DNA of 64,000 bases from Candidatus Thalassarchaeaceae archaeon (lineage in GTDB: Archaea > Thermoplasmatota > Poseidoniia > Poseidoniales > Thalassarchaeaceae), in contig JASMKR010000035.1 in NCBI GenBank assembly GCA_030749075.1, positions 15,858 through 79,857 of the forward strand, written 5' to 3'. This document shows positions 13,158 through 60,481 of the stretch, piece by piece (within the stretch, counting starts at the first letter, position 1; each line of letters begins with the position of its first letter). The notes under the pieces were generated by a model that was not told where the DNA came from, did no database searches, and worked only from the letters and a program-made list of their open reading frames with translations. Made by a program: the position numbers and the translations under genes.

Positions 13158-13495
13158 AGGTAATCGATAAGGTTGTCCGAGCCTCCCACGAACACCGGCT
13201 CTTCGCCCCTCAAGTCGAACACTACCGGAACCGTTCGGTGTCCCGTCTGACTGACCACCGCTTGCCTGAGCCCATCGTGATGATCGAGGTTGACATCGGT
13301 GAAGCTCAGTTCTTTGGATTCGAGGACCCTGAAGGCGAATGAGCAGAAGGGGCAGATGGTCTGGGTGAAGACCAAGAAGTCGGTCTCAGTCCCTATAATT
13401 ATCTCACGAAACTGCGACAGGCTCACCGCCCCCTTCTTGGTCAGACCACCATCCAGACTCGCCCAAATCGTCCGGAAGGACAGCGTCCACGGCAT
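13154..13495 (-). CDS. glutaredoxin-like protein
   Basis: FTQTICPFCSFAFRVL (CPxC) and TVPVVF...VGGSDNL match the glutaredoxin fold motifs. The ATG at 13495 overlaps the upstream gene by 92 nt. An in-frame GTG at 13426 is an alternative start. Confidence 0.72.
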   Translation of the reverse strand: MPWTLSFRTIWASLDGGLTKKGAVSLSQFREIIIGTETDFLVFTQTICPFCSFAFRVLESKELSFTDVNLDHHDGLRQAVVSQTGHRTVPVVFDLRGEEPVFVGGSDNLIDYL

Positions 13496-16400: not shown

Positions 16401-17099
16401 CTTCGGGTCGCAATCCCTCGGTATCGGCCCCGGGTCAGGGTCGAGGGGGTCTGGGGGGTCGTCTAGGCAGGTGAAGGGGTCGTCATCCATGTCGTTGAGG
16501 CCCTCGTGGTCACCTCTGATCCCCGTATCTAGGACTGCGATAACGGAGCCCGTCCCATCCAGACCGAGGTCCGTCCAGACGTTATCGACGCCCATCGTGG
16601 GCACCGCTTCGTGCATGTCGGGCTCGGCCAGTCCCAGGTCCTCGACCATCACCACGCCGGGCAGAGTGCGCACGCCATCGGGATCGAGGAGTATCTCGAA
16701 GGGCACTGTCGCTGCCACGGTGTCGAGGTACTTCGCCCTGAAAGTGACCTCGGCCCCTAGATTCTCAATTGCACTTACGTCTGCATCGGAGGGATGGTGG
16801 TCGTAGTCCACGAAGACCCTCGCGCTGCCAGCAGGCGCACGTCGCCACCAGTCCTGCTGAACCTCCGCGGGCTGCTCGATCAGCCACTCGAGACGGTCAT
16901 CGAGGGAGTTTGAGTCCTTATCCCTGCTCCAGTGCAGCCACCATAATGCATGGATCTCAGACTCCACGCTAGCTACCCACTCGCCATCGGCGTCGTAGCC
17001 ACCCCTCTCGTTCGACTCGGGTACGATGGAGGAGGCGGAGAGCGGTGCGACTAGCGTGAGCACCAAGAAGGAAGCGAGGAGGGCCCGGCGTCCGCTCAT
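13404..17099 (-). CDS. fusion protein: secreted subtilisin-like S8 peptidase ectodomain plus AmpG/PAT-type MFS permease
   Basis: Continuous frame. Signal peptide MSGRRALLASFLVLTLVAPLSASS. S8 triad: VIAVLDTGI (Asp codon 16527-16529), THGSHVAG (His 16326-16328), SGTSMATPLMAG (Ser 15774-15776). A linker helix at ~15150-15206 is followed by an MFS body with LYFAQGLPWGF and LPWTFKWIWGPVIDTLSLPQFGSRRLW (AmpG-like). Start set at the ATG at 17099 rather than 17156. Confidence 0.85.
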   Translation of the reverse strand: MSGRRALLASFLVLTLVAPLSASSIVPESNERGGYDADGEWVASVESEIHALWWLHWSRDKDSNSLDDRLEWLIEQPAEVQQDWWRRAPAGSARVFVDYDHHPSDADVSAIENLGAEVTFRAKYLDTVAATVPFEILLDPDGVRTLPGVVMVEDLGLAEPDMHEAVPTMGVDNVWTDLGLDGTGSVIAVLDTGIRGDHEGLNDMDDDPFTCLDDPPDPLDPDPGPIPRDCDPKIIAFYDAVFTDEEQDPSTSYDSSTHGSHVAGIAAGTGGGQTDPDTGLRYVGAAPGAYLINILACCDGDIEDVIEGAQWAIDNRDKYGIDIVTSSLGEQQFEIHVDNDGNSAWSRQMDMVVEAGIITTLSAGNEFGGATLVGCNTIDSPGDARLPITVASLDKDLSLAIYSSRGYTSDLRVKPDVATIGSSIMAPDAATQDGYTSKSGTSMATPLMAGIAALMIQANPDLTPSELKAIVSDKSIEREVSLFGDAGLNDCSLLETRPDNEFGYGQADPVAFVEAAGSIDRSLNVSMDINSMDEVLNQSYLSGTASGAAPGQGEVQVRVGGSQWRAAEDSSPLGDWAQWGIKLDPHNESGNTTIYARLIVDDDHISPVDARRVILLDMVAPAEATGSSSSRILIIGLSLILLPLLAYVLYNREQLVEEWFDGQSLTENRLRRMVSLCVLYFAQGLPWGFATVAFASYLSDNGFTPQEIGLLFATVALPWTFKWIWGPVIDTLSLPQFGSRRLWILFAQFGMAVTIGTLLFVPDLTGQIDLVIKLMFVHNIFASLQDVSTDALAVDVLRDDEVSKANGYMFASKRGGMIVGGAVLGGFAKTIGIKGMLSIQLPILLLIMILPMFLYEKPGTRLFPWSRPSNQESLYPESTDSYGVSEFEVDERLYWEEPEESRWWAARAVGRSTFDERISLAALLTIVSLTIFVAGLLFAIISVDLTVPLYGTAKSIAFYGIVLAIITALIARTVSIPRVFNPFSMLPQGPRRTLAQTSFNLTKAFHLRSSFMLIFLCLLSELYLFIDPIVIDIFINRAGWEQEDYNVIVGGIVILAVMTGQIAGGMLGDKFGVRRVAMIGFTSLAVCNAMLAVLEPFWTNTVVMTAYLIIRGLVNGVAWICVIAVCMKMTWSKVGGTQFTAYMSMFNLSGVMAYTFTGRMLQIFDNNYSTTIYVGAALTMFTVFFLIFIDPEECNRVLEEKDAVDAVLPDDLGESGWWSDQEGGGEPVAVS

Positions 17100-17145
17100 G
17101 GGCCTACGGGCCCATGGTCCTGTTTGAGGATTCGGACTTTGCAAC

Positions 17146-18018
17146 TCAACCGGCAATCCGCACGCCCTCGTCGTCGTAGTTCCACTCTATGAGTTCCCAG
17201 CCGACCCCCTCTATCGAGGCAATGGTGTCGTCTCTGCCTGAAGGAGAGCAGAGAAGGGCTGCGCATCCCCCGCCACCGGCTCCCAGCGCTTTCCAGGCAG
17301 CTAGGGAGCCACTCTCGAGCAATGGCTCTACCACTCCTCTGAAGGGGTCGTGCAAGGTGGTGTCGATCATGTCGACTCCCTCGCAGACATCCTTGAAGGA
17401 CTGCACCACGAGATCTCTTCGGTCTTGCTGCAGGCCATTGGCCATCGGGCGTGCCGCGGCGCGTATCCTGTGAAGCCCATCGATGACTGATTCGTTGCCC
17501 TCCGCGTAACTCCCCCAAACGGAGTCCTGGATGTCCCCGGAGCGTCGACTGGTTCCAGAGTACGCGACGAGCAGGTGCTTGCGTAGCCAAATCCTAGCGG
17601 ATCGCATCGGCTCGAAGGGGATTATCTCGACAGAATCCCCAAAGAAGAGCAGGTGGTTGAACCCCCCCCTAGCCGAGGCCCAGTGGTCCTGCCTGCCGCA
17701 GAAGTTTCCTCCATCGGCCTCCATCTGGAAGGCGATTTCGGCCAACTCCTCCGGGTGCTTGTCCTCACCGCATGACATTATGGCGGCCATAGCGACGTTC
17801 AACGCGCCACTAGTCCCTAGGCCGGATCCCCGAGGAGTCTCGAAGGTGCTCCCAAAGTCTCTCGCACCGCTGCCGGGAGTTCCTGTGACACGAACGTAAC
17901 GGTTGATTGCGAAGTTGACCACCTCTCCACCGAAGTCATTGGAGTATGGATCCACATCGGACCAGCCCCCAGCGAGATCGACTCTGACAGGCGCAGAGGC
18001 TTCTATTTGGGGTTCCAT
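17146..18018 (-). CDS. GHMP-family sugar kinase (COG2605 / HddA-like)
   Basis: APVRVDLAGGWSDVDPY at the N-terminus and the GHMP motif PRGSGLGTSGA. The internal ATG at 18018 (MEPQIEAS...) is preferred because 18168 would overlap ribB. Confidence 0.72.
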   Translation of the reverse strand: MEPQIEASAPVRVDLAGGWSDVDPYSNDFGGEVVNFAINRYVRVTGTPGSGARDFGSTFETPRGSGLGTSGALNVAMAAIMSCGEDKHPEELAEIAFQMEADGGNFCGRQDHWASARGGFNHLLFFGDSVEIIPFEPMRSARIWLRKHLLVAYSGTSRRSGDIQDSVWGSYAEGNESVIDGLHRIRAAARPMANGLQQDRRDLVVQSFKDVCEGVDMIDTTLHDPFRGVVEPLLESGSLAAWKALGAGGGGCAALLCSPSGRDDTIASIEGVGWELIEWNYDDEGVRIAG

Positions 18019-47162: not shown

Positions 47163-49622
47163 TCACTGCGAGAGGTCTTTGACCTTCTCGACCAGTTCCA
47201 TCCTTTGGATTCTGTTCGCCCCATATGGGGTCAGTAAAACCGAGACGAGCACCACGATTCCAATCAACTCGGCTGCCACGTATGGATCAGCTTGCACAGT
47301 AAGGAAGAAGGCCCATTGGACGAATGAGTCAATCAGTGCCTGGGTCCCCACGATAGTGAAGATGAATGCTAGGACGCCCCCAATGAGCCCGATGGCGAGG
47401 TGCTCACCGAACATCATCCAGCGAATGCGACTTATCGGGGCGCCCAGTACCCTCAGAGTGGCGATCTCCGAATCACGCTCTGCAAGGTTCAGCAGAAGCG
47501 TGTTGAATAGGACCACGGCAGCGATGAGTATGCCCAAAAAGAGGATTGCGCCGAAGGCGGCCTGCTGCTGCTCAAGGAGTGACTCGAATGTTCGTATCAA
47601 ATCCTTCTTCTGGGTTATTCCCAAGGAGATGTCTCCCAGTTCGCTGTCGACCTCCACCCCCTCGGGAAGGTCGATCAGGATCGAGGTGGCTTCGATTCCG
47701 ATGACCTGCGCCAGATCCCCCCTGTGAAAGTAGATTGTACGAGAGACCTCTCCTTGCGTTATTCCCGTAATCTCGACCTGTTTGGCGGATGAGCCGAACA
47801 TCACAGTCTGAGTCTGCCCCACATCCCATTCCAGGAAAACATGCAGGCCCTCGTCGATGAGAATCTGTGTGGTGGCTGAACCGGCTGCTGGGATGCTGCC
47901 CTCCTTGAGGTCGAGGACCATCATTGCGTCATCCTCGATAGACAGCGTGTCCAACCCATAGGCGAGCAGGTATCTGGAGTCGCCCTCGGGGTTCCCTGGA
48001 AACATCAGCACCGACTCGTGAGCAGCCCCCCTCTCATCGGCCCAGTCAATGACCGCCGCCTCCCCTCCGAATGGGACGACGACCTGAGCGTCCCAGTTCT
48101 GTTTCTCCTTTATCCCTCCCACAGTCAAATCCTCCATGGTTTCCATCATCAGGGTCATGCTGCCGAAGAGTAGCATTGAGAGTCCGACAGCGATGAATGT
48201 GAAGGCGAGTCGGGTCGGCTTCCTGATACTGGATCTGATGGTTAGGCCGGCTGTGGCAGGGAGTCTGGATGTGAGCTTCTGGATGCGTCTGGACGAGATC
48301 CTGACCTCATGCTGCCCTCGCATGACCTCGAGGGGTTGGAGTCTTGATGCCTGAACGGCTGGAAGGATGCCAGAAATCATGACCACGATCATCGAAATCC
48401 CTCCAATCTGGATGACGAGGGGAGTCACATCCGCTGGATTCAGAATCGGGACCCCGATTATTTCCTCGTAGAAACCCAGCATCGCCGGGGCTCCCACGAG
48501 TACCCCCAGCAGGGCACCGAATGAACTGCCGATGAGCCCGATTACCAAGGGCATGAGGATATAACCCGGCATTATGGCACTTCTGGGAATGCCCAGGGTT
48601 CGCAGGATTGCAATCTCCCTCGCCTGCGACTGAACAAGCCTCTGGAGGCTCAGGAAGATGGTGATCCCAGCGATGATGGCTATCATCGCAGTGACTGGGA
48701 TGTACATCATCATCGCACCCTCGGCGTCAGCTCGTAGGAGCTCTACGGAGCTGACTCCCGAGCGGTCGTAGACCAGCGAGGGGGTGTCGTCGGCCTCGAT
48801 CAAGATCGATCTGATGCTGTCCACCAGCGCGCTGAGTTCCCCCCCCTCGTTCTCCGTGGTCGACTGCAGATCGTAATCGGGCGTGCCAACGATGTCAATC
48901 AGCAGCAGATTGGACGAGCCCGGACTGATATTGGCTAGGCGCTCGAGGCCTGTGGCGGAGAGGTAGCCGGTTGCGAAGGTGCCGGGTTCGGCAGGATAGA
49001 GGATTCCCTCCTGGGCAAAGTAGAGGTGGTTGGAGTGAAGGCCTATTCCCACGACCGTGAAGTCCATCCTTCCAGCTCCGGCTCCGATGGATATGGCGTC
49101 CCCAATGCCGATGTCCATCCCCTTTGCCACGCGCACGTCAATGACTATCTCGTCGTCTTCGGAAGCGGCTTGTCCGGAGCAGCAGTCGTGGTCGGGGAAC
49201 CAGACCCTGTCGACGTAGCCCTCGTCGACGCCATGCCATATGGCCGGGACGGGTTTTTCCTCGCCCGCCTCGTCGGTGTGGAACATCAGGCCGTCGAGCC
49301 TCATGCGAGGCTCGCACTCGTTCAGAACGAGTTCGGAGTCAGGCCACTGGTTCGCTATGTCCTCGCAGATCGAGTCGGAGTCGTCCTCATCCCAAGTCCC
49401 ACTCGGATTCTCGACCCAGACATCGGGAAGGTTGACCCCATCATCCGTGTCTGCATAGATGTCCCCGTACATCCCTGAGGCTGTGTGGGCGTAGGAAGCG
49501 AAGGAAATCCCCCCCAAAACGCCGACCGTCACCATCAGGACGACAGCGACGAGCATGATCTTCTTGCGCCACAGGCTCCTTGCGAGGCGCTTGGTCAGCA
49601 GAGCGAACACGGAGCACCTCAC
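47163..49622 (-). CDS. ABC transporter permease with two FtsX domains (MacB/YbbP-type)
   Basis: 819 aa. Two modules, each an N-terminal helix, a large extracytoplasmic domain and a 3-helix FtsX bundle (REIAILRTLGIPR and SEIATLRVLGAPI). Confidence 0.85.
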   Translation of the reverse strand: MRCSVFALLTKRLARSLWRKKIMLVAVVLMVTVGVLGGISFASYAHTASGMYGDIYADTDDGVNLPDVWVENPSGTWDEDDSDSICEDIANQWPDSELVLNECEPRMRLDGLMFHTDEAGEEKPVPAIWHGVDEGYVDRVWFPDHDCCSGQAASEDDEIVIDVRVAKGMDIGIGDAISIGAGAGRMDFTVVGIGLHSNHLYFAQEGILYPAEPGTFATGYLSATGLERLANISPGSSNLLLIDIVGTPDYDLQSTTENEGGELSALVDSIRSILIEADDTPSLVYDRSGVSSVELLRADAEGAMMMYIPVTAMIAIIAGITIFLSLQRLVQSQAREIAILRTLGIPRSAIMPGYILMPLVIGLIGSSFGALLGVLVGAPAMLGFYEEIIGVPILNPADVTPLVIQIGGISMIVVMISGILPAVQASRLQPLEVMRGQHEVRISSRRIQKLTSRLPATAGLTIRSSIRKPTRLAFTFIAVGLSMLLFGSMTLMMETMEDLTVGGIKEKQNWDAQVVVPFGGEAAVIDWADERGAAHESVLMFPGNPEGDSRYLLAYGLDTLSIEDDAMMVLDLKEGSIPAAGSATTQILIDEGLHVFLEWDVGQTQTVMFGSSAKQVEITGITQGEVSRTIYFHRGDLAQVIGIEATSILIDLPEGVEVDSELGDISLGITQKKDLIRTFESLLEQQQAAFGAILFLGILIAAVVLFNTLLLNLAERDSEIATLRVLGAPISRIRWMMFGEHLAIGLIGGVLAFIFTIVGTQALIDSFVQWAFFLTVQADPYVAAELIGIVVLVSVLLTPYGANRIQRMELVEKVKDLSQ

Positions 49623-50428
49623 CCAACCGGTTCGTCCGACACTATCACGCCGCTGTCTATCCTGACCACCCTAGTGGAGAACTGGATCAGGGACTCGTCG
49701 TGAGTCACGAAGACGCAGGTGATTCCCTCGGCCTCGCAGGCCTTGACGAGGACCTCCATCACCATGGCTGAGGTATTCGAGTCGAGGTTACCGGTCAACT
49801 CGTCTCCGAGCAGCAGGCGTGGGCTTTTGGCCAGACTGCGGGCGATAGCGACCCTCTGCTGCTGGCCGCCGCTGATCTCGGCGGGGAATCGGTCAATCTC
49901 CTCTTCTAGTCCGACTAGTCTGAGCAGGCTCCTTGCACGTTCCTCGTCACGTCCTCCCGCCAATTCCTGTATCAGTAGGAGGTTCTCCAGTACCGTGAGG
50001 TCCTGGAGGAGGTTGAAGAACTGGAAGACGTATCCGATGTTCTCTCTCCTGAATGTGGTCATCTCCTCGCTCGCCTTGGCAATAGGCCTGGAGTGGGTGA
50101 AGTACTCCAGTGGGTACATCACCACTGACTCGATTGGTCTTAACCACCAATCAATGATTCTCCGTCCAGTCAATAATCTGATTCGGGGTCTTGAGATAGC
50201 GCCCTTGGGCACATCCTTGCCATTGAATGAGTAGGAGCCACTGGTCGGGGTGTCGAGCGCAGAGAGGCAGTTGAGTAGCGTTGTCTTGCCGGATCCGGAT
50301 GGTCCGAGCAGGATGATGCGGTCTCCATCGAAAACCTCCAGATCCACCCCGTCTAGGGCCTTGACGGTACCTGAAGCCATGTGATAATGCCTTTCCACCC
50401 CCCTAATGTCGACTAGTGGTTGCACCAT
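49619..50428 (-). CDS. ABC transporter ATP-binding protein (MacB/LolD-like) with insertion
   Basis: Walker A GPSGSGKTT, signature ISGGQQQRVAIARSL and Walker B LLLGDELTGNLD. About 35 extra residues sit between Walker A and the Q-loop. Confidence 0.9.
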   Translation of the reverse strand: MVQPLVDIRGVERHYHMASGTVKALDGVDLEVFDGDRIILLGPSGSGKTTLLNCLSALDTPTSGSYSFNGKDVPKGAISRPRIRLLTGRRIIDWWLRPIESVVMYPLEYFTHSRPIAKASEEMTTFRRENIGYVFQFFNLLQDLTVLENLLLIQELAGGRDEERARSLLRLVGLEEEIDRFPAEISGGQQQRVAIARSLAKSPRLLLGDELTGNLDSNTSAMVMEVLVKACEAEGITCVFVTHDESLIQFSTRVVRIDSGVIVSDEPVG

Positions 50429-50484: not shown

Positions 50485-52620
50485 TCATGATTCCGAGGCG
50501 CCAGCGAAGAATGCCATGGAGTCTCGGAACAGCTCCTCCCTTCGGTACCTCTTGTTATCCCTGATCTTCAGCCATGTGAAGGCGATCGCTAGTAGTATGA
50601 CGAACGGGATGAAGGCCTCGGCGTGGTAGCGCTCCATGAACTCGATAATCCCCCTCGCGGTATAGGCCCATGTTACCGAGGCCGCGGTGCCTCCGATGAA
50701 GCAGGCGGCCAGTACCCTCCGGAAGCGCATGCGGGCTACCAGCCCGAGCATCGCGCCTACGAGAACGCCGCTCGCCATGAAGGGAATCCACACGAAGACG
50801 ATCAGGCCCCAGAAGCCGTAGCGATCGATTCGGGAGCGGTTCTTGTGAGCGACGTACTCGACCGAGGATAGGATATCGCCCATGAACGGGTTCTGCAGCA
50901 GGGCTCCGGGAATGCCTCCGCGCCTCGCCACCATCGCCTCTCCGGTCAGCTCCGCCGTACCCTGCTCGACCCTTCCCGCCACCGCCCTGTCTGCTAGGGT
51001 GGACTTCTCGTTCCTAGCGCTGACCACGAGCGCACGACCGTCGATCAGGTCTCCGAGGTCAGACTGTAACTGCTGCCTCAAGTCCCCCTGGAGGTGCTCG
51101 TAGGTCGGCTTGAACAGGAAGTATGCGAACCTTGTGACCGGGCGGTAGATAACGCGCGCGAATACGGCGTCCTCGTCGGCCATGATGGCCGCTCCGTAAT
51201 CTGCCACGTCATGCCTCTTGAACCAGCGAGCCATGCTCTCATGGAATGCCTCCTCTAGGTTCCCAAATCGCCCCATGCGAGCAAAGAAGTCGCTGTAGTC
51301 ATCAGCCATTGGGACATCTGCAGAGTCGGTGGTAAACTGGTAGACGTTCCAGCCCGGGATCTCAGTCGGCCTGGAATCGGTGCAGACCGCCTTGATTTGC
51401 AGCGGGCGCATCTCACCGAAAATGCTGAACTCCGAGAGGATGTCCTTGATAATGGTGGCCTTGACGTCGATTGGGCTTACTATCGTCCTCCTCGTGGTCT
51501 TGTAGGTAAGGTAGACATCGACTGAAATCGCCCTGTCCTGAATCATCATCGAATCGTAGTCGGGACGTATGTGAAGCCTCTCGCTCGCCGATGCGATAGT
51601 CCTCCCTATCAGGCGTCGCATCTGCTCGCTCGAGAGGAGATCGTCGGCGTCCCTATGGTAGAGTCGATGCATTAGCGGGTACTGAACACATAGGAAGAAG
51701 ATAGACATCCCCAAGGAGATAGTTGCCATGTACCATGGTGGCACTTCGGCGCTGCCGCCGGTGAGCATCGCAGTTTCCCTGCCACCGACCCATTCGGCAC
51801 CCATGAGCACCCATCCCCAGCCACCTAACCGCTGAACAGTGAAACAAGCCCTAGGCTCATCATCGAACTTCTCCATGTTCTTGTGTATCTCCGTCGACCC
51901 CCACAGCGAGGAGGTCTCCCTGCTCTCCAGAAGAATTACGATCTCCTTCGAGACGTGGATGTCTCTGCTCGCTTCAGATGAGCGAGCGAGCGAGGTCAAC
52001 TCGTGGATTGTCAAGTTGGAGAGATCAGTAGCATCGTCAGTCCAAACGAATATCTCAATGGTGACGTCATACTCCCCTTCCCCTAGGGAGTCGTAGTCCA
52101 TAGTCAGCGATAGTTCACCCACTCCACCAATCCCAAGGACAGTTTGCTCGGAGTCGTTGGATAGTGTCAGTAGCATGATAGAAGATGCCGAAGTTGGGGC
52201 GTTTTGGCTGAGAACGCGGAGGTTCTGGCTCTGGTCAATCCAAGTCTCGAACCAAATCTCCTCAGTTTTGTCAATGCAGTCGGACGAATCGAGGAAGGTT
52301 CCTGAGACCGTGTCGTCAAGCGTGATCGAGTCCCCGAACAAGAGTCCCGACGAGGTTAGGAAGACGGAGCCGAAGAAGACCGCCCCGGCAACCAGGCCGA
52401 AAACAAGGGTGTAGTCATCGAAGGTCTGGGGGATGATTGTGTTGACCATGAAGCTGTTGTCGGGATTGGTCCTCCTGTCGCGAATCCTCTTGAGTTCCAA
52501 GTCGATTCGGTCTTCCTCGATTTCCCCCTCTGGCACCTCAGTTACCTCTGGACCGGTGCCCTCTCCAACGTCGGTGGGGGGGACTTCGGGGAAACCCGGG
52601 GAACCGCCATCGCTCGACAT
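50485..52620 (-). CDS. hypothetical 711-aa polytopic membrane protein; C-terminus resembles small multidrug-export (PF06695-like) domain
   Basis: Acidic Pro-rich N-terminus, a helix, a ~200-aa ectodomain, a helix pair, a ~300-aa cytoplasmic domain, then GLIVFVWIPFMASGVLVGAMLGLVARMRFRR...GGTAASVTW. Confidence 0.6.
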   Translation of the reverse strand: MSSDGGSPGFPEVPPTDVGEGTGPEVTEVPEGEIEEDRIDLELKRIRDRRTNPDNSFMVNTIIPQTFDDYTLVFGLVAGAVFFGSVFLTSSGLLFGDSITLDDTVSGTFLDSSDCIDKTEEIWFETWIDQSQNLRVLSQNAPTSASSIMLLTLSNDSEQTVLGIGGVGELSLTMDYDSLGEGEYDVTIEIFVWTDDATDLSNLTIHELTSLARSSEASRDIHVSKEIVILLESRETSSLWGSTEIHKNMEKFDDEPRACFTVQRLGGWGWVLMGAEWVGGRETAMLTGGSAEVPPWYMATISLGMSIFFLCVQYPLMHRLYHRDADDLLSSEQMRRLIGRTIASASERLHIRPDYDSMMIQDRAISVDVYLTYKTTRRTIVSPIDVKATIIKDILSEFSIFGEMRPLQIKAVCTDSRPTEIPGWNVYQFTTDSADVPMADDYSDFFARMGRFGNLEEAFHESMARWFKRHDVADYGAAIMADEDAVFARVIYRPVTRFAYFLFKPTYEHLQGDLRQQLQSDLGDLIDGRALVVSARNEKSTLADRAVAGRVEQGTAELTGEAMVARRGGIPGALLQNPFMGDILSSVEYVAHKNRSRIDRYGFWGLIVFVWIPFMASGVLVGAMLGLVARMRFRRVLAACFIGGTAASVTWAYTARGIIEFMERYHAEAFIPFVILLAIAFTWLKIRDNKRYRREELFRDSMAFFAGASES

Positions 52621-52767
52621 GTGAGGACATAGGATGATGGGGGTATATCTGTTGTTTGCAATGCCTCTCTGGCATCACTTGGGGCATGCGTGGGAACCGC
52701 CTCTCCAAATCACAAAGCAATTGCCCCCCCAGCAGGAAATTTCTTCATCTGAATGGCAATTTTAATG

Positions 52768-52788
52768 TCCTCCTACATAGTAGGAGGA
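52768..52788 (+). promoter_or_regulatory. perfect 9-bp stem / 3-nt loop hairpin covering the GGAGG upstream of the giant ORF
   Basis: tcctcctac-ata-gtaggagga ends 2 nt before the ATG at 52791. The right arm contains the SD-like aggagg. Confidence 0.45.
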
Positions 52789-52790
52789 GC

Positions 52791-55700
52791 ATGCCTAGTG
52801 GTAACGGGGCGCGGGTCCACCTGTCTCTCCTTCTCACTTCACTGATGGTTTTCCCCACATTGTTGTCTGTCGCCGCACTAACCCTAGAGCCGCAGACAGG
52901 TGATCTAGATTCGAAATCTTCAGGAGTCTCAAAGAACGGACCTAGGGCCTACTATAGCGAATTGGGCATCCCTCAAATTAACGATCCTTCACATGGATGG
53001 TGGAATTCAGACGGCGTTGGTGAGGCCTTGCTCTACCACCGGAAGGCAACCTACGTCCCCATTGAGGATTGGCAAACCACTACGGGAGAGCGCGTTCTTT
53101 CGGGATGGCATGTCCTAGGGCACGAGTACCCCATACCTAGCAATTGGAAGGATGACCTTAGCGAGATGGGGATTGAGTGTCAGACCTTTTACTCGCCCCA
53201 AGGATTCCACTGTGATGTTCCCGACCTTTCGGGCGGAGATCTGATGGAAGCCGGAGTCATAGGGGCCTTTCGACTAGATCCAACCGACAAGCTCGCTCCC
53301 GATGTGCTACCCCTGATCTGGGGAATGGTGGAATCTAACGCGATTATGGAGGGAGACCTGTTCGTGATCAATGTCCTGCTTTCCGGGGATTTCAATCGGG
53401 GCGATATCCTGTCAAGTCCTATCGACTTGAGAGAAATGTACGCAGGTAGGTTGGCCAAGATAGTTGCAGACGAGAAGGGGATGGAGTGGCTTGTGAACCA
53501 AGATTTCGTCGAGTGGATCGAACCGGATTATCCCGTACAGTTGTCCAACGACGAAGCTGCAGAAATCATCAATGTTGATTGGGTCGGTGACCCGTCGAAT
53601 ATGGGTGGTCCGCTGAACACCCTTTCGGGTTCGGGAGTTATCGTCGCGGTGGCGGACTCCGGCTTGGATACGGCAGAGTCGTGCGGCAGTACGATTAGTT
53701 ACGCCGCCAGTTTGTTAGATTGCAACTCGAAAAACGGCGACGTTCTCGATGACTTTGTAGGAAGGATTGCCTCGGTTCAGTCCTTCCATGGTTCTTGCTC
53801 GGATGACGGGCCCAGTGACGATCATGGGCATGGCACACACGTCACTGGATCGGTTCTGGGGGATGGTTCCAACTCTCTTCCAGATGGCGAGAACTTCGCT
53901 GGAATGGCCCCAGATGCCAACTTATACATGCAAGCGATCAAGTGCGGTGGCTCCCTGTACCCCCCATCCGACTACGAAAACGACCTGTTCCTTCCTGCTT
54001 ATGAGTTTGGGGCCAGAGTCCATACCAACTCATGGGGCACAGGTCCCTCCGGAAGCACCCCCAACTACTACAGCTCATCCACACTGATGGTCGACGAGGC
54101 GGCCTATGAGATGGACGACATGGTCATCCTCTACGCTATGGGGAACGATGGATCAGATGATAACTCGAACGGCGAGATTGACCTGGAATTCATGAACAGG
54201 CAAGCGACTGCGAAGAACATACTCTCCATAGGTGCCTCGGAGAACTTCAGACCGACTCTGACTGGAAGCACATGGGGCACCGCGAACAGTGACAACTGGG
54301 GGGCTTCGCCAATCAGCAGCGATTACCTTGCAAACAACATTGAGGGTCTGGCTGCATTCTCCAACCGAGGACCGACCGACGATGGCAGGATAAAGCCCGA
54401 CCTTGTAGCCCCTGGGACATATATCATCTCCACTAGGTCCGCTGAATCCGGCGCCAGCTGTATTGAAACTGGTTACGAAAACTACTGCTACAATCAGGGA
54501 ACATCCATGGCGACTCCGATTACCGCAGGCTCGACCGCACTGATACTGGAGTACCTCAACAATCAGGGCTACACTGACGATTTCACCAAGTCCAATGACC
54601 CAGCATCTGCCATGGTGAAGGCTATGATGGCGTCAGGGGCCCACGATATGGAAGGGCAGTACAGCACCGGCGGTGATGGTAAGAACGGGGCTGCAGACTC
54701 CGCGCCAAATCCTCATGAGGGCTGGGGCTTACTTGATCTCCAAGGGACTGTCGGGACATCCTTCATGGATGGAATCAGTATCGCTACTCAGGAGAGTCAC
54801 TCGATGAGGCTGACCGTTCCGGTCGGTATCCCTGAGTTCCGCGTTGTTCTCTCTTGGAATGACCCTCCTAACTCACCCTCAGCGGGCAAGCAACTTATCA
54901 ACGACCTAGACATTTTCCTGAAGAACCCCAGCGGTGCCACCTTCAATTACGTTAACGACGATGTAAACAACTTGGTTGGAGTGACTGTAGAAAGCCCAGA
55001 TGCTGGTGACTGGGAGGTTATTATCAACGGCGCCAACGTTGCCGATGGCCCGCAAATCTACTACGTCGCCGTGAGCAATGGACTCGTTATCACCGACATG
55101 AGGCATCCGGTTTCCGATACCCTCAACATCGCTGGTTTCCAATCTGGTTCCATTTTCACCGAGACCACGGTATCTGTTGGCGGGAACCACATATGCGCTA
55201 TTATCGACGATTCGTCCCTACAGTGCTGGGGTGACAACTCGTTTGGGCAAGTAGGGGATGGGACCACCACAGACAGGTTGACTATGACCTCTGTAGCACT
55301 GGACTCCGGCAGAACTGCAGTGTCCGTAAGCACGGGGGAGTCCTACACCTGCGCCACACTCGACGACTCGAGCCTGAGGTGCTGGGGGAGGAACAATAAG
55401 GGGCAGTTGGGAGATGGTACCACCACCAACTCCATTTCCCCTGTTTCCGTCGGTCTCGGTGGCTTCCCAGTCCAGGTTTCCTCAGGTCTAAGGCATACCT
55501 GCGCTGTTCTGACTGATGCCAGTTTGAAATGTTGGGGGGACAATGCGAACGGCCAGCTAGGTATCGGGTCAAACTCGGATAGCAGCACTCCAGTTACAGT
55601 CAGTTTCAGCGGTGGCAAGAAAGTGCTTGCTGTCTCCACTGGGGCTGCTCATACCTGTGCGGTGCTGGATGACAGGAGCCTGCAATGCTGGGGCGAGAAC

Positions 55701-58700
55701 GGGGATGGCCAACTTGGAATTGGGACTAATTCCGATAGCGATTCTCCGTCTGAAGTAACTGTAGGGGGCTATGTTGTTGCTGTCTCGGCAGGGGGGTCAC
55801 ATACCTGTGCTCTGATGGTAAACCAGGATCTCAAGTGCTGGGGCAGCAATAGCCAGGGCCAACTCGGGAGCGGGGACCAAGTTTCCCAGAACTCGCCAAC
55901 AACAGCAGTTCTTTCAGAAGTAATTTCTATTGATGTTGGGGGCGAACACTCGTGTGCGGTCAACCTCACCCAAACGTTGTACTGCTGGGGTGCGAATTCG
56001 GGCGGTCAGGTCGGGGATGGAACAACCAGTACCGCTACCTCGCCAACTATGATTAGCGTGGGTTCCTCATTGGGTGCAATATCAGTTTCCGCGGGTGGCT
56101 CTTTCTCTTGTGTCACGGCTAGCAACGACCTTCTAAGCTGCTGGGGCGGAGCGAGTTCGGATTCGATTTCAATAGGATCTTCGCCTAGCGAGATCGAGTT
56201 ATCACGCTGGACATACATCAATTCCGCGGAGAGAGATTTGGACGATGATGGGTCGCTGAACCTTTTCGACACTCATGGACCGGGGGACAATGATGGTGAT
56301 GGCTTCCCATCAGGGTCAAATGATGTGGATGACAGCAACCCCGCAAGAGCCGCTGACTGTAGTCCCGGCTCCTATGGCAGGTACATCTGCAAGGTGGCAA
56401 CTGTCGGATTCTTCGTCAGCGACCCGGGTAGCCTTGTGATGACGCCGGCCAGTTCTGGGCACTACGTCGATACTGACGGGGCTTCAATCGACACGCCCTG
56501 CGCGGTTGGAACATACCAAGAACGAACTGGTCAGACCTCATGCGACCCGTCGCGAGCTGGATACTACGTCGATCTGGAGGGGCAATCATCCGATACCCCC
56601 TGTCCGGGAGGTAAGTTCAACCCAAATACTGGTTCCATGTCTGAAGAAGACTGCACGGGGTCGGAACCGGGCTACAACGTGCCCATCCTAACCCAAATAA
56701 GTTCTGGCTCTTTCCATACATGCGCTATCCTCGACGACGGTTCGGTGAGTTGCTGGGGAGACAACGCGAATGGGCAACTGGGTGACGGCACTAGATCTGG
56801 GCACACCTCTCCGGAAACTGTCCTGCTACCTTTGGGCAAGTCCGCAGTAGCTATTTCCTCTGGATCATACCACACTTGCGCCGTCTTGGATGACGGTTCT
56901 CTACGGTGTTGGGGTAACAATGAATTCGGCCAACTCGGTGATGAAACTACAATCGAGAGGATTAGCCCAGTAAGTGTTGACCTCGGCTCGGGGAGGACTG
57001 CTGCGAGCGTGTCAGCTGGCGAGTCACATACCTGTGCTGTGCTCGATGATTCAAGCGTGAAGTGCTGGGGGGAGAATAGCAACGGGCAGCTGGGAGATGG
57101 AACTAGTACGAACCGCTTCAGCCCTGTTTCGATAGGGCTGGGTGACGGCAATACGGCCGTATCGGTGTCTTCGGGCTCTTACCATACCTGCGCCATTACG
57201 GACGAAAGGATGGTGAAGTGCTGGGGCGACAACTGGCATGGGCAATTGGGAGACGGCAGTACTGGAGACCGGTTTTCCCCTACGAAAATCGATTTGCCGA
57301 TTAATAGCAGCGCTGTGACCCTGTCATCTGGCTCTTTCCACACCTGCGTGGGCCTCAATGATGGATCCATGTTCTGTTGGGGATACAATGCATATGGGCA
57401 ACTTGGTAACGGGAACATGTCGAATAGCCACTCACCCTCTGCAGTGGGATTGATCGAGTCAGAATCCCCCACTCAAGTCTCTATTGGAATGTATCACAGC
57501 TGTGCACTTTTCGACAGCGGCAGCGTATCCTGCTGGGGCGGGAACTCAGAGGGACAGCTCGGGGATGGAGGTCAGATTGAAAGTTTGATTCCCCAAACCG
57601 TCGCCCTTCCCGCAGGAAAGGACGCGCTTTCAATCTCGATAGGGCAACGGCACTCCTGCGCTATTCTGAACGATGCGACTCTCTATTGTTGGGGCTACAA
57701 TGCCAACGGGCAACTCGGGGATGGAGGGACGACGAATCGCCTTTTGCCATCCAACATTGACTTGCGACATGGGTCAAGCGCCCAGATAGCATGCTCCCCG
57801 GGGACATTCCAGCCTAATGCGTCACAGACTTCTTGCATTCTCGCTGACAGGGGGTATAGCGTCCCCCTACAGGCTTCGCTCAATCAGACTGGCTGTACCA
57901 AGGGATACTATTCGAGTCTGAGGGGTCAGGAGTCATGCATTATGGCCTCGATTGGTTATTACGTGGACGAGAACCTAGCTGACTCACAAACTGCCTGTCC
58001 TCCGTTCAACTCCACTGTACAACGAGGTTCGAACAACTTCGATCTATGCAAGCCCGACTTCGACGGTGACATGTCTCCAGATGTGATTGATCTGGATGAC
58101 GATGCCGACGGCGTGGAGGATCGCTACGACTTCGATCCACTCGACCCTGAGGTCTCTATTGACTCCGACGGGGACTCGATTCCCGATAGCCTGGATAGCG
58201 ATGACGACAACGACGGCGTGAACGACACCACTGACAAATTTCCATACAACCAAGACGAATGGGAGGACAAGGACGAGGATGGAGTGGGGGACAACAGCGA
58301 CAACGATGACGATAACGACGGACGAGAAGACTCATTCGACGTGTTCCCCAACGATCCCGCGGAATGGTCGGATTTCGACGGGGACGGCATTGGCGACAAT
58401 GCCGATGAGGACGACGACAACGACGGCGTCAACGATGTTGACAACGACCCCTATGCCGATTTGGATGACGCGTTCCCGCTCGACAGTACGGAATGGATAG
58501 ATACCGATGACGACAGCATCGGCAACAACGCCGACACCGATGATGACGGGGACGGTTTCGATGATGAATTGGATGCGTTCCCTCTCGACCCAACGGAGTG
58601 GCTCGACAGTGATGGTGACACTTTCGGTGACAATTTCGACTGGGACGACAACAATCCATTCGAGTGGATGGATTCGGATGGAGATCAGATTGGTGATAAC

Positions 58701-59123
58701 TCGGACGAATGCCCTGATGAACAAGGATTGAACTCTAGCTTCGAGAACTTCGCTCACAAGTTGGCGTTGCCCGGAAACAAACTCGGATGCCCTCTTTTCG
58801 AAGGAGAGGTCGTGGTTGAGGAAGAAGAGATTGGTTTCACACTCTCAGACGTCGATGTCACGGATACCGACGGTGACGGTACAGTGGACCTCTTCGATCC
58901 CGACGATGATAATGACGGGATTCCTGATGAGGAGGATGGTAAGTTGGATCGGCGGACTGGCGAAGGGAAGTTCTCGAAGGACCCAACTAGGCCATTCGGA
59001 CAGAATACTTGGATTGTTATCTTGTTGAGCTTCGTATTCATCTCCATGATGGGACTCCGGTTATTCAGTTGGAAGAAAAGGAAGTTTGCTACGCTGAAGT
59101 CAAAGAGAATCAGGCTAGGATAA
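52791..59123 (+). CDS. giant membrane-anchored surface protein: S8 peptidase + 2 RCC1 propellers + Cys-rich ephrin-receptor-like repeats + thrombospondin type 3 Ca-binding repeats
   Basis: Signal-like N-terminus (HLSLLLTSLMVFPTLLSVAAL). S8 triad: VAVADSGLDT (Asp 53655-53657), HGHGTHVTG (His 53829-53831), GTSMATPITAG (Ser 54504-54506). A P/Fn-like domain (VVLSWNDPP...LINDLDIFL) and a C-terminal helix 59004-59065 with a basic tail. ATG at 52791 is preferred over 52656. Confidence 0.9.
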   Translation: MPSGNGARVHLSLLLTSLMVFPTLLSVAALTLEPQTGDLDSKSSGVSKNGPRAYYSELGIPQINDPSHGWWNSDGVGEALLYHRKATYVPIEDWQTTTGERVLSGWHVLGHEYPIPSNWKDDLSEMGIECQTFYSPQGFHCDVPDLSGGDLMEAGVIGAFRLDPTDKLAPDVLPLIWGMVESNAIMEGDLFVINVLLSGDFNRGDILSSPIDLREMYAGRLAKIVADEKGMEWLVNQDFVEWIEPDYPVQLSNDEAAEIINVDWVGDPSNMGGPLNTLSGSGVIVAVADSGLDTAESCGSTISYAASLLDCNSKNGDVLDDFVGRIASVQSFHGSCSDDGPSDDHGHGTHVTGSVLGDGSNSLPDGENFAGMAPDANLYMQAIKCGGSLYPPSDYENDLFLPAYEFGARVHTNSWGTGPSGSTPNYYSSSTLMVDEAAYEMDDMVILYAMGNDGSDDNSNGEIDLEFMNRQATAKNILSIGASENFRPTLTGSTWGTANSDNWGASPISSDYLANNIEGLAAFSNRGPTDDGRIKPDLVAPGTYIISTRSAESGASCIETGYENYCYNQGTSMATPITAGSTALILEYLNNQGYTDDFTKSNDPASAMVKAMMASGAHDMEGQYSTGGDGKNGAADSAPNPHEGWGLLDLQGTVGTSFMDGISIATQESHSMRLTVPVGIPEFRVVLSWNDPPNSPSAGKQLINDLDIFLKNPSGATFNYVNDDVNNLVGVTVESPDAGDWEVIINGANVADGPQIYYVAVSNGLVITDMRHPVSDTLNIAGFQSGSIFTETTVSVGGNHICAIIDDSSLQCWGDNSFGQVGDGTTTDRLTMTSVALDSGRTAVSVSTGESYTCATLDDSSLRCWGRNNKGQLGDGTTTNSISPVSVGLGGFPVQVSSGLRHTCAVLTDASLKCWGDNANGQLGIGSNSDSSTPVTVSFSGGKKVLAVSTGAAHTCAVLDDRSLQCWGENGDGQLGIGTNSDSDSPSEVTVGGYVVAVSAGGSHTCALMVNQDLKCWGSNSQGQLGSGDQVSQNSPTTAVLSEVISIDVGGEHSCAVNLTQTLYCWGANSGGQVGDGTTSTATSPTMISVGSSLGAISVSAGGSFSCVTASNDLLSCWGGASSDSISIGSSPSEIELSRWTYINSAERDLDDDGSLNLFDTHGPGDNDGDGFPSGSNDVDDSNPARAADCSPGSYGRYICKVATVGFFVSDPGSLVMTPASSGHYVDTDGASIDTPCAVGTYQERTGQTSCDPSRAGYYVDLEGQSSDTPCPGGKFNPNTGSMSEEDCTGSEPGYNVPILTQISSGSFHTCAILDDGSVSCWGDNANGQLGDGTRSGHTSPETVLLPLGKSAVAISSGSYHTCAVLDDGSLRCWGNNEFGQLGDETTIERISPVSVDLGSGRTAASVSAGESHTCAVLDDSSVKCWGENSNGQLGDGTSTNRFSPVSIGLGDGNTAVSVSSGSYHTCAITDERMVKCWGDNWHGQLGDGSTGDRFSPTKIDLPINSSAVTLSSGSFHTCVGLNDGSMFCWGYNAYGQLGNGNMSNSHSPSAVGLIESESPTQVSIGMYHSCALFDSGSVSCWGGNSEGQLGDGGQIESLIPQTVALPAGKDALSISIGQRHSCAILNDATLYCWGYNANGQLGDGGTTNRLLPSNIDLRHGSSAQIACSPGTFQPNASQTSCILADRGYSVPLQASLNQTGCTKGYYSSLRGQESCIMASIGYYVDENLADSQTACPPFNSTVQRGSNNFDLCKPDFDGDMSPDVIDLDDDADGVEDRYDFDPLDPEVSIDSDGDSIPDSLDSDDDNDGVNDTTDKFPYNQDEWEDKDEDGVGDNSDNDDDNDGREDSFDVFPNDPAEWSDFDGDGIGDNADEDDDNDGVNDVDNDPYADLDDAFPLDSTEWIDTDDDSIGNNADTDDDGDGFDDELDAFPLDPTEWLDSDGDTFGDNFDWDDNNPFEWMDSDGDQIGDNSDECPDEQGLNSSFENFAHKLALPGNKLGCPLFEGEVVVEEEEIGFTLSDVDVTDTDGDGTVDLFDPDDDNDGIPDEEDGKLDRRTGEGKFSKDPTRPFGQNTWIVILLSFVFISMMGLRLFSWKKRKFATLKSKRIRLG
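55173..56160 (+). repeat. RCC1-like repeat block 1 (6 clear blades plus 1 degenerate)
   Basis: Periodic ~50-aa units ending in CWG-x4-GQ(L/V)G-xG, e.g. LQCWGDNSFGQVGDG, LRCWGRNNKGQLGDG, LKCWGDNANGQLGIG. Confidence 0.85.
56697..57765 (+). repeat. RCC1-like repeat block 2 (7 blades)
   Basis: VSCWGDNANGQLGDG, LRCWGNNEFGQLGDE, VKCWGENSNGQLGDG, VKCWGDNWHGQLGDG, MFCWGYNAYGQLGNG, VSCWGGNSEGQLGDG, LYCWGYNANGQLGDG. Confidence 0.87.
58056..58725 (+). repeat. thrombospondin type 3-like acidic Ca-binding repeat array
   Basis: About 6 units of FPxDPxEWxDxDGDGIGDNxDxDDDNDGVxD. The DNA is visibly self-similar (gacgacgacaacgacggcgt-type strings). One more unit lies at ~58855-58935. Confidence 0.8.
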
Positions 59124-59137
59124 ACAGTGCGCCACAG

Positions 59138-59222
59138 TGGTGCAGGGGGCAGGATTCGAACCTGCGAAGCACTACGCACAGCGACCTGAACGCTGCCCCT
59201 TTGACCACTCGGGTACCCCTGC
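59138..59222 (-). tRNA. tRNA-Leu (anticodon CAG), class II, CCA encoded
   Basis: The reverse complement folds by hand. Acceptor GCAGGGG/CCCCTGC, anticodon arm CAGCG-TTCAGGT-CGCTG, 13-nt variable arm, T arm GCAGG-TTCGAAT-CCTGC, then ACCA. Confidence 0.9.
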
Positions 59223-59281: not shown

Positions 59282-59366
59282 TGGTGCAGGGGACAGGATT
59301 CGAACCTGCGAAGCACTACGCACTGGGACCTAAACCCAGCCCCTTTGACCACTCGGGTACCCCTGC
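59282..59366 (-). tRNA. tRNA-Leu (anticodon UAG), class II, CCA encoded
   Basis: Same body as the neighbouring tRNA. Anticodon arm CTGGG-TTTAGGT-CCCAG, T arm GCAGG-TTCGAAT-CCTGT (G-U closing pair), then ACCA. Confidence 0.9.
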
Positions 59367-59458: not shown

Positions 59459-60481
59459 ATGGCTCGAATGGCACGAATAGGCATACTCGGTCTAGGTAAC
59501 TGGGGTACGGCCCTAGCTCATGTCTGGTGCAAGGATGGTCACAATGTTCTAGGCTGGACCATAGAGCAAGAAGTCTACGAGTCCCTCATGACGAAGAGTG
59601 AGAACGAGAAGTACCTGCCTGGTTATGAGATTCCCCATCTACAATCCACAATGAATATCGCCGACGTCACGGAGACTTGCGAAATCATAGTCCTAGCACT
59701 GCCCAGCGGTGCCATACTGGAGGTTATCGACGATTTGATTCCCCATCTTCGTCCATCGCACCTTCTAATCGATCTAGCGAAAGGGCTTGCCCCGAGGGAA
59801 GGGGGTGGTTCGGGAATGATCTCAGACGCGATAGAGAAGAGGCTTGCAACGGCCGAAATGTCTAATCCGGTTGTGGTGATGACAGGGCCCACCATCGCAA
59901 CGGAAGTGGCTCGTGGCGTCATGACCAACGCGCTGGTGGCGTGTCATGACAGGAGCGTGGCAGAGCGCGTAGCGGAGCGCCTCTCTACTGATTCACTGAT
60001 CCTGACACCGGCAGAGGATCCGTTGGGTGCCGAACTGTGGGGGGCGTACAAGAATGCTGTGGCGCTTGCCTGTGGACTAGTGGATGGGCTCAAGGAATCC
60101 ATAGGCGGTGATAATCTGAAAGCCGCGCTCGTTCTCTCTGGATACAGCGAGGGCATAGGGCTGCTGGGCGCCATGGGGGCTGATCCCGAGACTGCATTTG
60201 GACCGGCTGGAATAGGGGACCTGTACGTGACTGCAACCAGCCCTCGCAGCCGGAACCGGACGCTCGGGGAGAAGCTGGGCTCGGGGAAGAGCCTAGAGCA
60301 GGCTCTGAAAGAGATGCACATGGTGGCAGAAGGGGTGCGCGCAACACGGATGTTCCTCAGGAGGTCGGAGGATTTGGGTCATCAAACCCCGTTCCTCCAA
60401 TCTCTAGGAAGCCTGCTGGACGGAGAGATTGGCGTCGAGAAGGCAATCAGACTGATGGTAGAGGCCTACGGCAACCAATGA
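59459..60481 (+). CDS. gpsA: NAD(P)H-dependent sn-glycerol-3-phosphate dehydrogenase
   Basis: N-terminal RIGILGLGNWGTALA (GxGxWGxA), KNAVALACGLVDG and EGVRAT motifs, at 340 aa. Confidence 0.88.
   Translation: MARMARIGILGLGNWGTALAHVWCKDGHNVLGWTIEQEVYESLMTKSENEKYLPGYEIPHLQSTMNIADVTETCEIIVLALPSGAILEVIDDLIPHLRPSHLLIDLAKGLAPREGGGSGMISDAIEKRLATAEMSNPVVVMTGPTIATEVARGVMTNALVACHDRSVAERVAERLSTDSLILTPAEDPLGAELWGAYKNAVALACGLVDGLKESIGGDNLKAALVLSGYSEGIGLLGAMGADPETAFGPAGIGDLYVTATSPRSRNRTLGEKLGSGKSLEQALKEMHMVAEGVRATRMFLRRSEDLGHQTPFLQSLGSLLDGEIGVEKAIRLMVEAYGNQ

Follow-up and report, generated by a model that had tools for sequence, protein, structure and literature searches.

We describe a giant gene in a stretch of 64,000 nucleotides (nt) from a Candidatus Thalassarchaeaceae archaeon (Marine Group IIb, MGIIb; assembly GCA_030749075.1, contig JASMKR010000035.1, positions 15,858 to 79,857 of the forward strand). 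The whole stretch is called the window below, and its positions are counted from its first letter. We consider it moderately probable that the product of 2110 amino acids (aa) is a type I membrane protein displaying a subtilisin of the KP-43 type at the outer tip of a long extracellular stalk, i.e., a cell-tethered protease that feeds peptide uptake in MGIIb, with the protease head fused onto a stalk cassette. The domain arrangement is new and every part of it is known; the protein is a cell-anchored subtilase and not a new kind of system.

As seen in Table 1, the protein consists of a signal peptide, an N-terminal region, the protease head, two propellers each followed by Cys-rich repeats, an Asp-rich array and a membrane anchor. 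An earlier note on the window, made by a model that ran no database searches, had listed a signal-like N-terminus, an N-terminal region of ~270 aa of no recognized family, an S8 protease domain with an intact triad, two RCC1 propellers, ephrin-receptor-like Cys repeats and a single C-terminal helix with a KKRK tail, all of which are borne out by the results below. It had also proposed a Pfam scan, in which Peptidase_S8, RCC1 and Ephrin_rec_like pass their cut-offs and TSP_3 falls just under its own.

Using Pfam, we were able to assign aa 280-646 to Peptidase_S8 (PF00082; E 8.5e-36, 124 bits vs. a cut-off of 21.8). The catalytic residues stand in the Asp-His-Ser order of S8 subtilases, with the oxyanion Asn, in a subtilisin fold, and none of the four, D289, H347, S572 and N452, varies among 56 sequences spanning both Poseidoniales families. 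According to phmmer, aa 298-763 align with residues 22-434 of the 434-residue chain of KP-43, the alkaline serine protease of Bacillus sp. KSM-KP43 (1wmd; E 1.9e-53), and an AlphaFold model of aa 1-800 (pLDDT, the per-residue confidence, 72.7; pTM, the predicted TM-score, 0.76) gives a head that Foldseek matches to the same structure with E 4.7e-38, a target TM-score of 0.90 and 32% identity. The whole mature enzyme is thus aligned, with the same triad, and its two-domain core, which is also that of SubHal (5fax), another of the S8A subtilases called 'oxidant-stable', is reproduced: the subtilisin domain is directly followed by a jelly roll, which is all-beta in the AlphaFold2 model (pLDDT 84-89) and has a weak Pfam PPC match (17.2 bits). 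The earlier note had called this part P/Fn-like; it is a beta domain, as claimed, and its identity is that of the KP-43 jelly roll rather than a P or Fn domain. KP-43 is a soluble secreted enzyme of ~43 kDa, whereas here ~1340 further residues (propellers, Cys-rich repeats, Asp-rich array) and a membrane anchor follow the jelly roll in the same open reading frame (ORF), and the N-terminal region matches no described propeptide family.

Judging by its sequence, the enzyme belongs to the degradative branch S8A and not to the kexins, and a degradative substrate range is predicted for the head from its likeness to the broad-specificity KP-43. The specialized processing of a specific ligand, one of the roles suggested in the earlier note, is not borne out, as the head is that of an ordinary KP-43-type degradative subtilase.

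Both ends of the protein point to surface display. The protein has two membrane-grade hydrophobic segments only, aa 9-33 and aa 2073-2092. The AlphaFold2 model of the N-terminus shows one helix at aa 7-31 and then a disordered linker; the signal peptide is called from hydropathy and this helix, and the cleavage site near aa 30 is approximate. Between the two segments lie 50 Cys, conserved in the family in regularly spaced pairs, and the ectodomain has a net charge of -238; an extracellular location fits because of these conserved pairs and this charge. The topology, from signal peptide through ectodomain to a single C-terminal transmembrane helix with a basic tail (SWKKRK...KSKRIRLG), fits a surface-displayed protease on a stalk, as the earlier note had proposed.

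No known C-terminal sorting signal was recognized: scanned with the NCBIfam models, the last 80 aa gave no match even at E<=10, the tripartite signal of the PGF-CTERM/archaeosortase type included. We note that the end of the tail is conserved family-wide as [KR]S[KR][KR]IR[IL]x, and that a conserved [FW]S[KR]DPxRPF motif (FSKDPxRPF) lies just outside the membrane helix at aa 2061-2069. The tail motif was found on zero other ORFs in a regular-expression scan of ~150 kb of MGIIb DNA, and just three fragments came back from a word-based search with the last 64 aa, which was uninformative.

The ~225 aa between the signal peptide and the catalytic domain match zero Pfam families even at E<=1. Modelled alone with AlphaFold2, this region reaches a pLDDT of 83 overall and 90-98 in its core. 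A Foldseek search of PDB folds gave nothing significant, the best matches being tandem RRM/ACT-type folds with E 0.04 or worse; weak local matches include the furin/PC1/3 prodomain (probability 0.66, TM-score 0.56) and chains of PAM protease and ProteinT protease. In the 56-sequence alignment a Cys130/Cys141 pair is invariant, as are a Trp and a Pro. The residue aa 278 aligns with residue 19 of the mature KP-43 chain, and at N253, which is at least 90% conserved, begins an ND-A--I motif that we take to resemble the mature N-terminus of KP-43. The full head model covers more columns of ProN-Tk-SP, a pro-form, than of mature KP-43. From topology and position only, we infer that the region is a pro-region, removed near aa 253-260.

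The stalk begins with propeller A. Pfam RCC1 scores 387 bits over 13 repeat stretches, and WD40_RLD, whose best stretch (aa 792-1107) lies in propeller A alongside RCC1/RCC1_2, scores 487 bits vs. a cut-off of 150 (E 4e-146). The CWGxNxxGQLG signatures of the blades are spaced by 49-52 aa; seven tandem repeats of ~50 aa that match these profiles make each a seven-bladed RCC1-like propeller, an assignment from sequence alone. Propeller B is 50% identical to propeller A, and Cys-rich set B is 33% identical to set A. Scanned as separate segments, sets A and B score 35.6 and 41.2 bits with PF07699 (cut-off 23.1), and their Cys pairs are conserved in the family. The acidic linker between propeller A and set A keeps 57% mean identity in the family alignment. 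We also note that each RCC1 blade (55131-57785) carries a Cys pair, in H-T/S-C ... C-W-G, 10 residues apart and kept family-wide, which suggests one disulfide per blade in these extracellular propellers.

The Asp-rich region that follows was called a thrombospondin type 3 (TSP3) calcium-binding array in the earlier note. At the motif level this stands: the strict pattern DxDxDGxxDxxD occurs 8 times, vs. 0.07 expected from 2000 shuffles, with a 35-aa period. At the profile level it does not, Pfam TSP_3 (PF02412) giving 16.4 bits with the whole protein and 22.6 bits with the segment alone vs. a cut-off of 25. The NCBIfam MtsC thrombospondin-3 model matches the array (E 9e-9), and the sole sequence matches of the array in PDB are COMP, TSP-1 and TSP-2. 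The motifs and their ~35-aa period are those of the type 3 repeats of thrombospondin and COMP and of Myxococcus MtsC. Unlike in true type 3 repeats, the disulfide-forming Cys are mostly absent (there are two only, 1974 and 2000), whereas they are present in each repeat of the Poseidoniaceae sister protein described below. We therefore call the region TSP3-like rather than a proven TSP3 array, and its calcium binding is predicted.

Table 1. Features of the giant gene and its product (window positions; aa, residues of the 2110-aa protein)
Feature	Residues	Position	Strand	Evidence or detail
Shine-Dalgarno-like GGAGG		52783..52787	+	4 nt upstream of the ATG at 52791; direct sequence reading
Complete gene, 2110-aa membrane-anchored subtilase		52791..59123	+	stop codon 59121-59123
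Signal peptide (predicted)	1 to ~30	52791..52880	+	basic n-region with R8; hydrophobic core aa 9-33; hydropathy scan
N-terminal region, putative pro-region	31 to ~255	52881..53555	+	tandem beta-alpha-beta-beta-alpha-beta subdomains
S8A subtilase catalytic domain	~256-650	53556..54740	+	triad D289/H347/S572, oxyanion N452
KP-43-type C-terminal jelly-roll beta domain	651-770	54741..55100	+	phmmer alignment to the last residue of KP-43
RCC1 propeller A	781-1130	55131..56180	+	GFQSGSIF lead-in; six canonical blades and one degenerate seventh
Acidic linker	1131-1189	56181..56357	+	DDDG and DNDGDG stretches resembling calcium motifs; sequence reading
Cys-rich set A, Ephrin_rec_like	1190-1300	56358..56690	+	three conserved Cys pairs
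RCC1 propeller B	1301-1665	56691..57785	+	seven canonical 52-aa blades
Cys-rich set B, Ephrin_rec_like	1666-1755	57786..58055	+	Pfam PF07699
TSP3-like Asp-rich array, predicted to bind calcium	1756-2050	58056..58940	+	31% Asp
Single C-terminal transmembrane helix	2073-2092	59007..59066	+	hydropathy scan and family alignment
Basic tail, predicted cytoplasmic, SWKKRKFATLKSKRIRLG	2093-2110	59067..59120	+	net charge +8 over the last 18 residues

A repeat-rich sequence from a metagenome-assembled genome (MAG) raises the question of a chimeric ORF, collapsed repeats or another artefact of assembly or gene calling, an explanation that is effectively refuted here. The 2110 codons are open, as the earlier note had read them, and 4 contigs encode an identical 2110-aa protein, one of them from an independent Logan assembly (run SRR25584963). 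The window was also traced to contig JASLMS010000005.1 of MAG GCA_030746395.1. Repeat collapse and chimerism are of no concern because the internal DNA repeats of the gene are just 60-76% identical to each other. Conservation is uniform over the full length, and the same domain order recurs in the 53 clusters described next. The start MPSGN is common to the protein and its close homologues (P0001, P0002, P0003 and P0005); a longer form from a TTG at 52656 was considered and is unlikely, given the GGAGG at the ATG and the homologues beginning at MPSGN.

Searching 5.8 billion proteins, clustered at 90% identity, we found at least 53 clusters of 1339-2227 aa with the same Pfam set, 51 of which are 2056-2227 aa long, at 47-86% identity. 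In the databases the named members stand under generic titles, 'S8 family serine peptidase [Candidatus Thalassarchaeaceae archaeon]' and 'alpha-tubulin suppressor-like RCC1 family protein'. The architecture is no singleton but that of a conserved syntenic family. Mean identity is 54-67% across all modules (53 sequences) with all Cys pairs kept, and the modules are under similar purifying selection. The neighboring genes are the same in a homologue of 54% identity and in three loci of GTDB species: a divergent gene for a 711-aa membrane protein, an ABC/FtsX pair, an Exo_endo_phos nuclease, an archaeal ADH synthase, DHQS-II and, downstream, gpsA, with 48-54% identity among the proteins of the neighborhood. 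A pattern scan of GTDB species genomes found at least 3 RCC1-type loci among the 80 listed, which is a lower bound for the distribution. The giant gene is a vertically inherited core gene of MGIIb and not a one-off.

Poseidoniaceae (Marine Group IIa, MGIIa) carry a sister family of ~1870 aa (e.g. P0068 and P0091, 'S8 family serine peptidase [Poseidonia sp.]'). Common to both families, at 37-43% identity and with the same invariant residues, are the N-terminal region, the S8 domain and the jelly roll; both also have a TSP3-type stalk and a C-terminal transmembrane anchor. Unlike the MGIIb protein, the sister has no RCC1 and no Ephrin-like modules; instead it has 17-28 Cys-containing TSP3 repeats of ~55 aa (consensus CxDxDGDGxSDxxDxFPxDxxQWxDxDGDGxGDN; e.g. 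L004 8001-13625, and L008-L046), and its cytoplasmic tail is longer and different. Its gene neighborhood also differs, with a divergent ABC exporter in 30 loci (69-89% identity) and a downstream Peptidase_M28 in 15 loci. These sister genes may be the 'thrombospondin genes' reported for Poseidoniales. Beyond Poseidoniales, the same protease core occurs in Methanosarcinaceae and Methanolobus, where most of the proteins end in a strongly hydrophobic segment, and also in many bacteria, there with unrelated C-terminal parts.

The stalk, in turn, occurs without the head. Five proteins (P0182, P0136, P0163, P0300 and P0132) combine RCC1, Ephrin_rec_like and TSP3 motifs with a C-terminal transmembrane helix in the same module order, with a signal peptide and a PGFQxGSIF lead-in to the first propeller. 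They differ in having no protease head, the propeller directly following the signal peptide, and in a variable number of propellers (up to ~19 blades). P0182 (1232 aa), with its own signal peptide, TSP3 motifs and membrane helix, is collinear with aa 776-1736 (38.8% identity, E 0); P0132 is MDB3870679.1 of a 'Euryarchaeota archaeon' (MAG GCA_028240785.1; L086 6001-12075), and two members of the P0136 cluster bear Tara Oceans names. RCC1, Ephrin-like, TSP3 and membrane helix together thus look like a reusable stalk cassette. These comparisons are most simply read as the fusion of a protease head found throughout Poseidoniales to an RCC1/Ephrin-like/TSP3/transmembrane surface protein that already existed, because the stalk exists without the protease and the head exists on a TSP3-only stalk.

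We searched 1.84 billion cluster representatives exhaustively with HMMER, using aa 280-1300 as the query, and found 57,422 proteins at E<=1e-30. The best 150 of the 57,422, all giant multi-RCC1 proteins, have a median length of 2814 aa; S8 and RCC1 are both covered in one of them, a member of the family, and none of the other 149 carries both S8 active-site motifs. The term 'eukaryote-like', which the earlier note had applied to the stalk domains, is misleading, since all 149 non-family proteins in this set are giant multi-RCC1 proteins of public genomes or metagenomes. We found no description of the arrangement of S8, RCC1, Ephrin-like and TSP3 in the literature searched, where mentions are limited to generic MGII S8 peptidases and 'thrombospondin genes'; the earlier note's impression that a protease with a double RCC1 and TSP3 is undescribed agrees with this. 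Giant RCC1 proteins have been described in Clostridia, as have giant Omnitrophota proteins, some with an N-terminal S8 and others rich in TSP3 (preprint 10.1101/2023.11.21.568195).

Among known systems, the working principle is shared by the cell-envelope proteinases of Gram-positive bacteria (lactocepin PrtP, the C5a peptidases ScpA/ScpB, SpyCEP), which likewise place a pre-pro S8 protease on a long, C-terminally anchored multi-domain spacer, and which in lactic acid bacteria supply oligopeptide uptake. Unlike these, the giant protein has a transmembrane anchor and an RCC1/Ephrin-like/TSP3 spacer: Pfam finds no PA insert and no domains of the Fn3-type A/B kind, and the C-terminus has no LPXTG. 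Their sequence and fold matches to the head are weak and partial (TM-score ~0.3), and the resemblance is functional rather than one of family membership. Tk-SP of Thermococcus kodakarensis (3afg) is an archaeal S8 enzyme that also has a propeptide and a beta-jelly-roll, with ProN-Tk-SP as the third-best fold match (E 2.5e-28), and is far more distant than KP-43 (20% identity, TM-score 0.70). Pyrolysin and the tetrabrachion-bound STABLE protease are further archaeal envelope-associated subtilases. Unlike the giant protein, neither these two nor Tk-SP are known to carry RCC1, Ephrin-like or TSP3 modules on one chain with the protease.

Putting these results together, we propose the following course of events. 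The signal peptide would carry the protein through Sec, and the N-terminal region would act as folding chaperone and inhibitor until it is cut off, probably autocatalytically, at the site given above. The mature protease with its jelly roll would then stay tethered through the two RCC1 and Cys-rich modules and the TSP3-like array, loaded and, as we infer, stiffened by calcium in seawater, to the one C-terminal membrane helix and its basic cytoplasmic tail. Propellers and Cys-rich repeats would serve as rigid spacers and probably as binding modules too. The tethered enzyme would cleave dissolved or particle-bound proteins beside the cell, and the peptides would be caught by the cell's own transporters instead of being lost by diffusion. 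A nutritional role analogous to that of the bacterial cell-envelope proteinases seems most likely, and it fits the published view of MGII as protein-dependent heterotrophs. MGII appear dependent on external proteins and peptides (PMC6461757, PMC6336850), and North Sea MGII MAGs contain 1-4 extracellular S8 peptidases each (PMC6864105). In deep-sea MG-I, -II and -III, phylogeny divides the S08A peptidases into four groups that include 'oxidant-stable proteases', and in transcriptomes of MG-II and MG-III the transcripts of extracellular peptidase genes rank with the most abundant ones (PMC4660358).

Several observations count against this proposal. No peptide transporter adjoins the gene, whose neighbors are the ABC/FtsX pair and the 711-aa membrane protein. 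The N-terminal region has no significant match to a known propeptide, and its invariant residues suggest that it may do more than assist folding. The head-less proteins show that the stalk serves some function independently of the protease, and adhesion could be the primary role. If so, RCC1, Cys-rich and TSP3 modules would bind particles, phytoplankton or cells, and the S8 domain would be secondary, serving self-processing, release (shedding) or local remodelling. We regard such an adhesin as possible but doubtful. It would account for the autonomous cassette, it agrees with the proposal of 'thrombospondin genes' as Poseidoniales adhesion factors (PMC6461757), and the nearest NCBIfam TSP3 model is that of MtsC, a Myxococcus cell-cell cohesion protein. 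However, the protease head recurs throughout Poseidoniales, whereas the families differ in the stalk that carries it; the head is most similar to a degradative enzyme of broad specificity, its catalytic residues are invariant, and no stalk module has a known ligand. On a broader view of the cassette, which we hold as tentatively as the adhesin, it would be a general stalk of planktonic Euryarchaeota surface proteins, used bare or with various heads, the protease-tipped version being the main device by which MGIIb capture and digest high-molecular-weight protein or the surfaces of prey or phytoplankton; the propellers would then be specific receptors, and the N-terminal region and the tail would be regulatory.

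Two further explanations were considered. Furin and PC5/6 consist of a prodomain, an S8 domain, a beta-barrel domain, Cys-rich repeats, a transmembrane helix and a cytoplasmic tail, a layout that the giant protein resembles, and a membrane-bound convertase of this kind would mature other surface or secreted proteins at specific sites. Furin and Kex2 are indeed among the Foldseek matches, and the PC1/3 prodomain is the weak local match of the N-terminal region noted above, but the furin and Kex2 folds reach TM-scores of 0.44-0.47 vs. 0.90 for KP-43, Pfam finds no P_proprotein domain (PF01483), the sequence is S8A-like, and orthologous heads in other archaea and bacteria bear unrelated C-terminal parts. 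We rejected membership in the kexin/furin branch (S8B) on the first two of these grounds, and the convertase is unlikely. A main structural role in the MGIIb envelope, as an S-layer-like canopy that carries a protease in the manner of the tetrabrachion-protease complex of Staphylothermus marinus, is also improbable. Many archaeal S-layer proteins have a C-terminal membrane anchor, and the giant gene, present as one conserved copy in a syntenic part of the core genome, encodes a long stalk so anchored, which would suit such a canopy; against it, N-glycosylation sequons are depleted (8 vs. 21 expected), neither PGF-CTERM nor another known archaeal sorting signal is matched, and there is no evidence of lattice-forming domains or very high expression.

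With regard to the genes around the giant gene, the 711-aa protein (50485-52620, - strand) is encoded divergently, 170 bp away, and keeps its place in every Thalassarchaeaceae locus examined (57-69% identity). Its one family match, to Sm_multidrug_ex, is confined to the C-terminal 70 aa; the first ~570 aa match no family. It is followed by an ABC ATPase (49619-50428) and an 819-aa FtsX-type permease (47163-49622). No functional link between the giant gene and its neighbors is established, and the Poseidoniaceae sister gene has another context. Downstream, two tRNA-Leu genes with CAG and TAG anticodons (59138-59222 and 59282-59366, - strand) begin 15 nt after the stop codon, and gpsA (59459-60481, + strand) encodes a bacterial-type NAD-dependent glycerol-3-phosphate dehydrogenase in an archaeal genome; bacterial-type gpsA in MGII has reportedly been noted before, in the 'lipid divide' literature. 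The same contig carries, about 3 kb beyond the window's right end, an opposite-strand gene for a 2245-aa product with no Pfam match on record (L001 24215-26333).

The window contains a second S8 gene. A 1250-aa ORF (13404-17156, - strand) encodes a Peptidase_S8 domain (aa 201-524, E 1e-44) fused to an AmpG/Acatn-like MFS transporter (aa 690-1200). Both Pfam domains are found in 120 of 120 clusters among the matches listed, most of them full-length, at 60-94% identity, under names such as 'subtilisin family serine protease/MFS family permease' (JGI) and 'MFS transporter [Ca. Thalassarchaeaceae]' (NCBI). The covalent fusion of protease and transporter suggests a direct coupling of extracellular proteolysis to uptake; we found no description of it in the literature searched.

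Marine Group II, which has yet to be cultured, ranks with the most abundant archaeal groups of the surface ocean, and its members probably live on high-molecular-weight protein. The giant gene can be used as a marker in metatranscriptome and metaproteome studies, and its head (aa ~31-770) is a tractable target for recombinant expression. The protein is a clear example of archaeal surface proteins built as heads on reusable stalk cassettes, with no new biochemical principle, and a giant protease conserved in both MGII families, on stalks specific to each lineage, is a concrete candidate for the enzyme behind their protein-based lifestyle.

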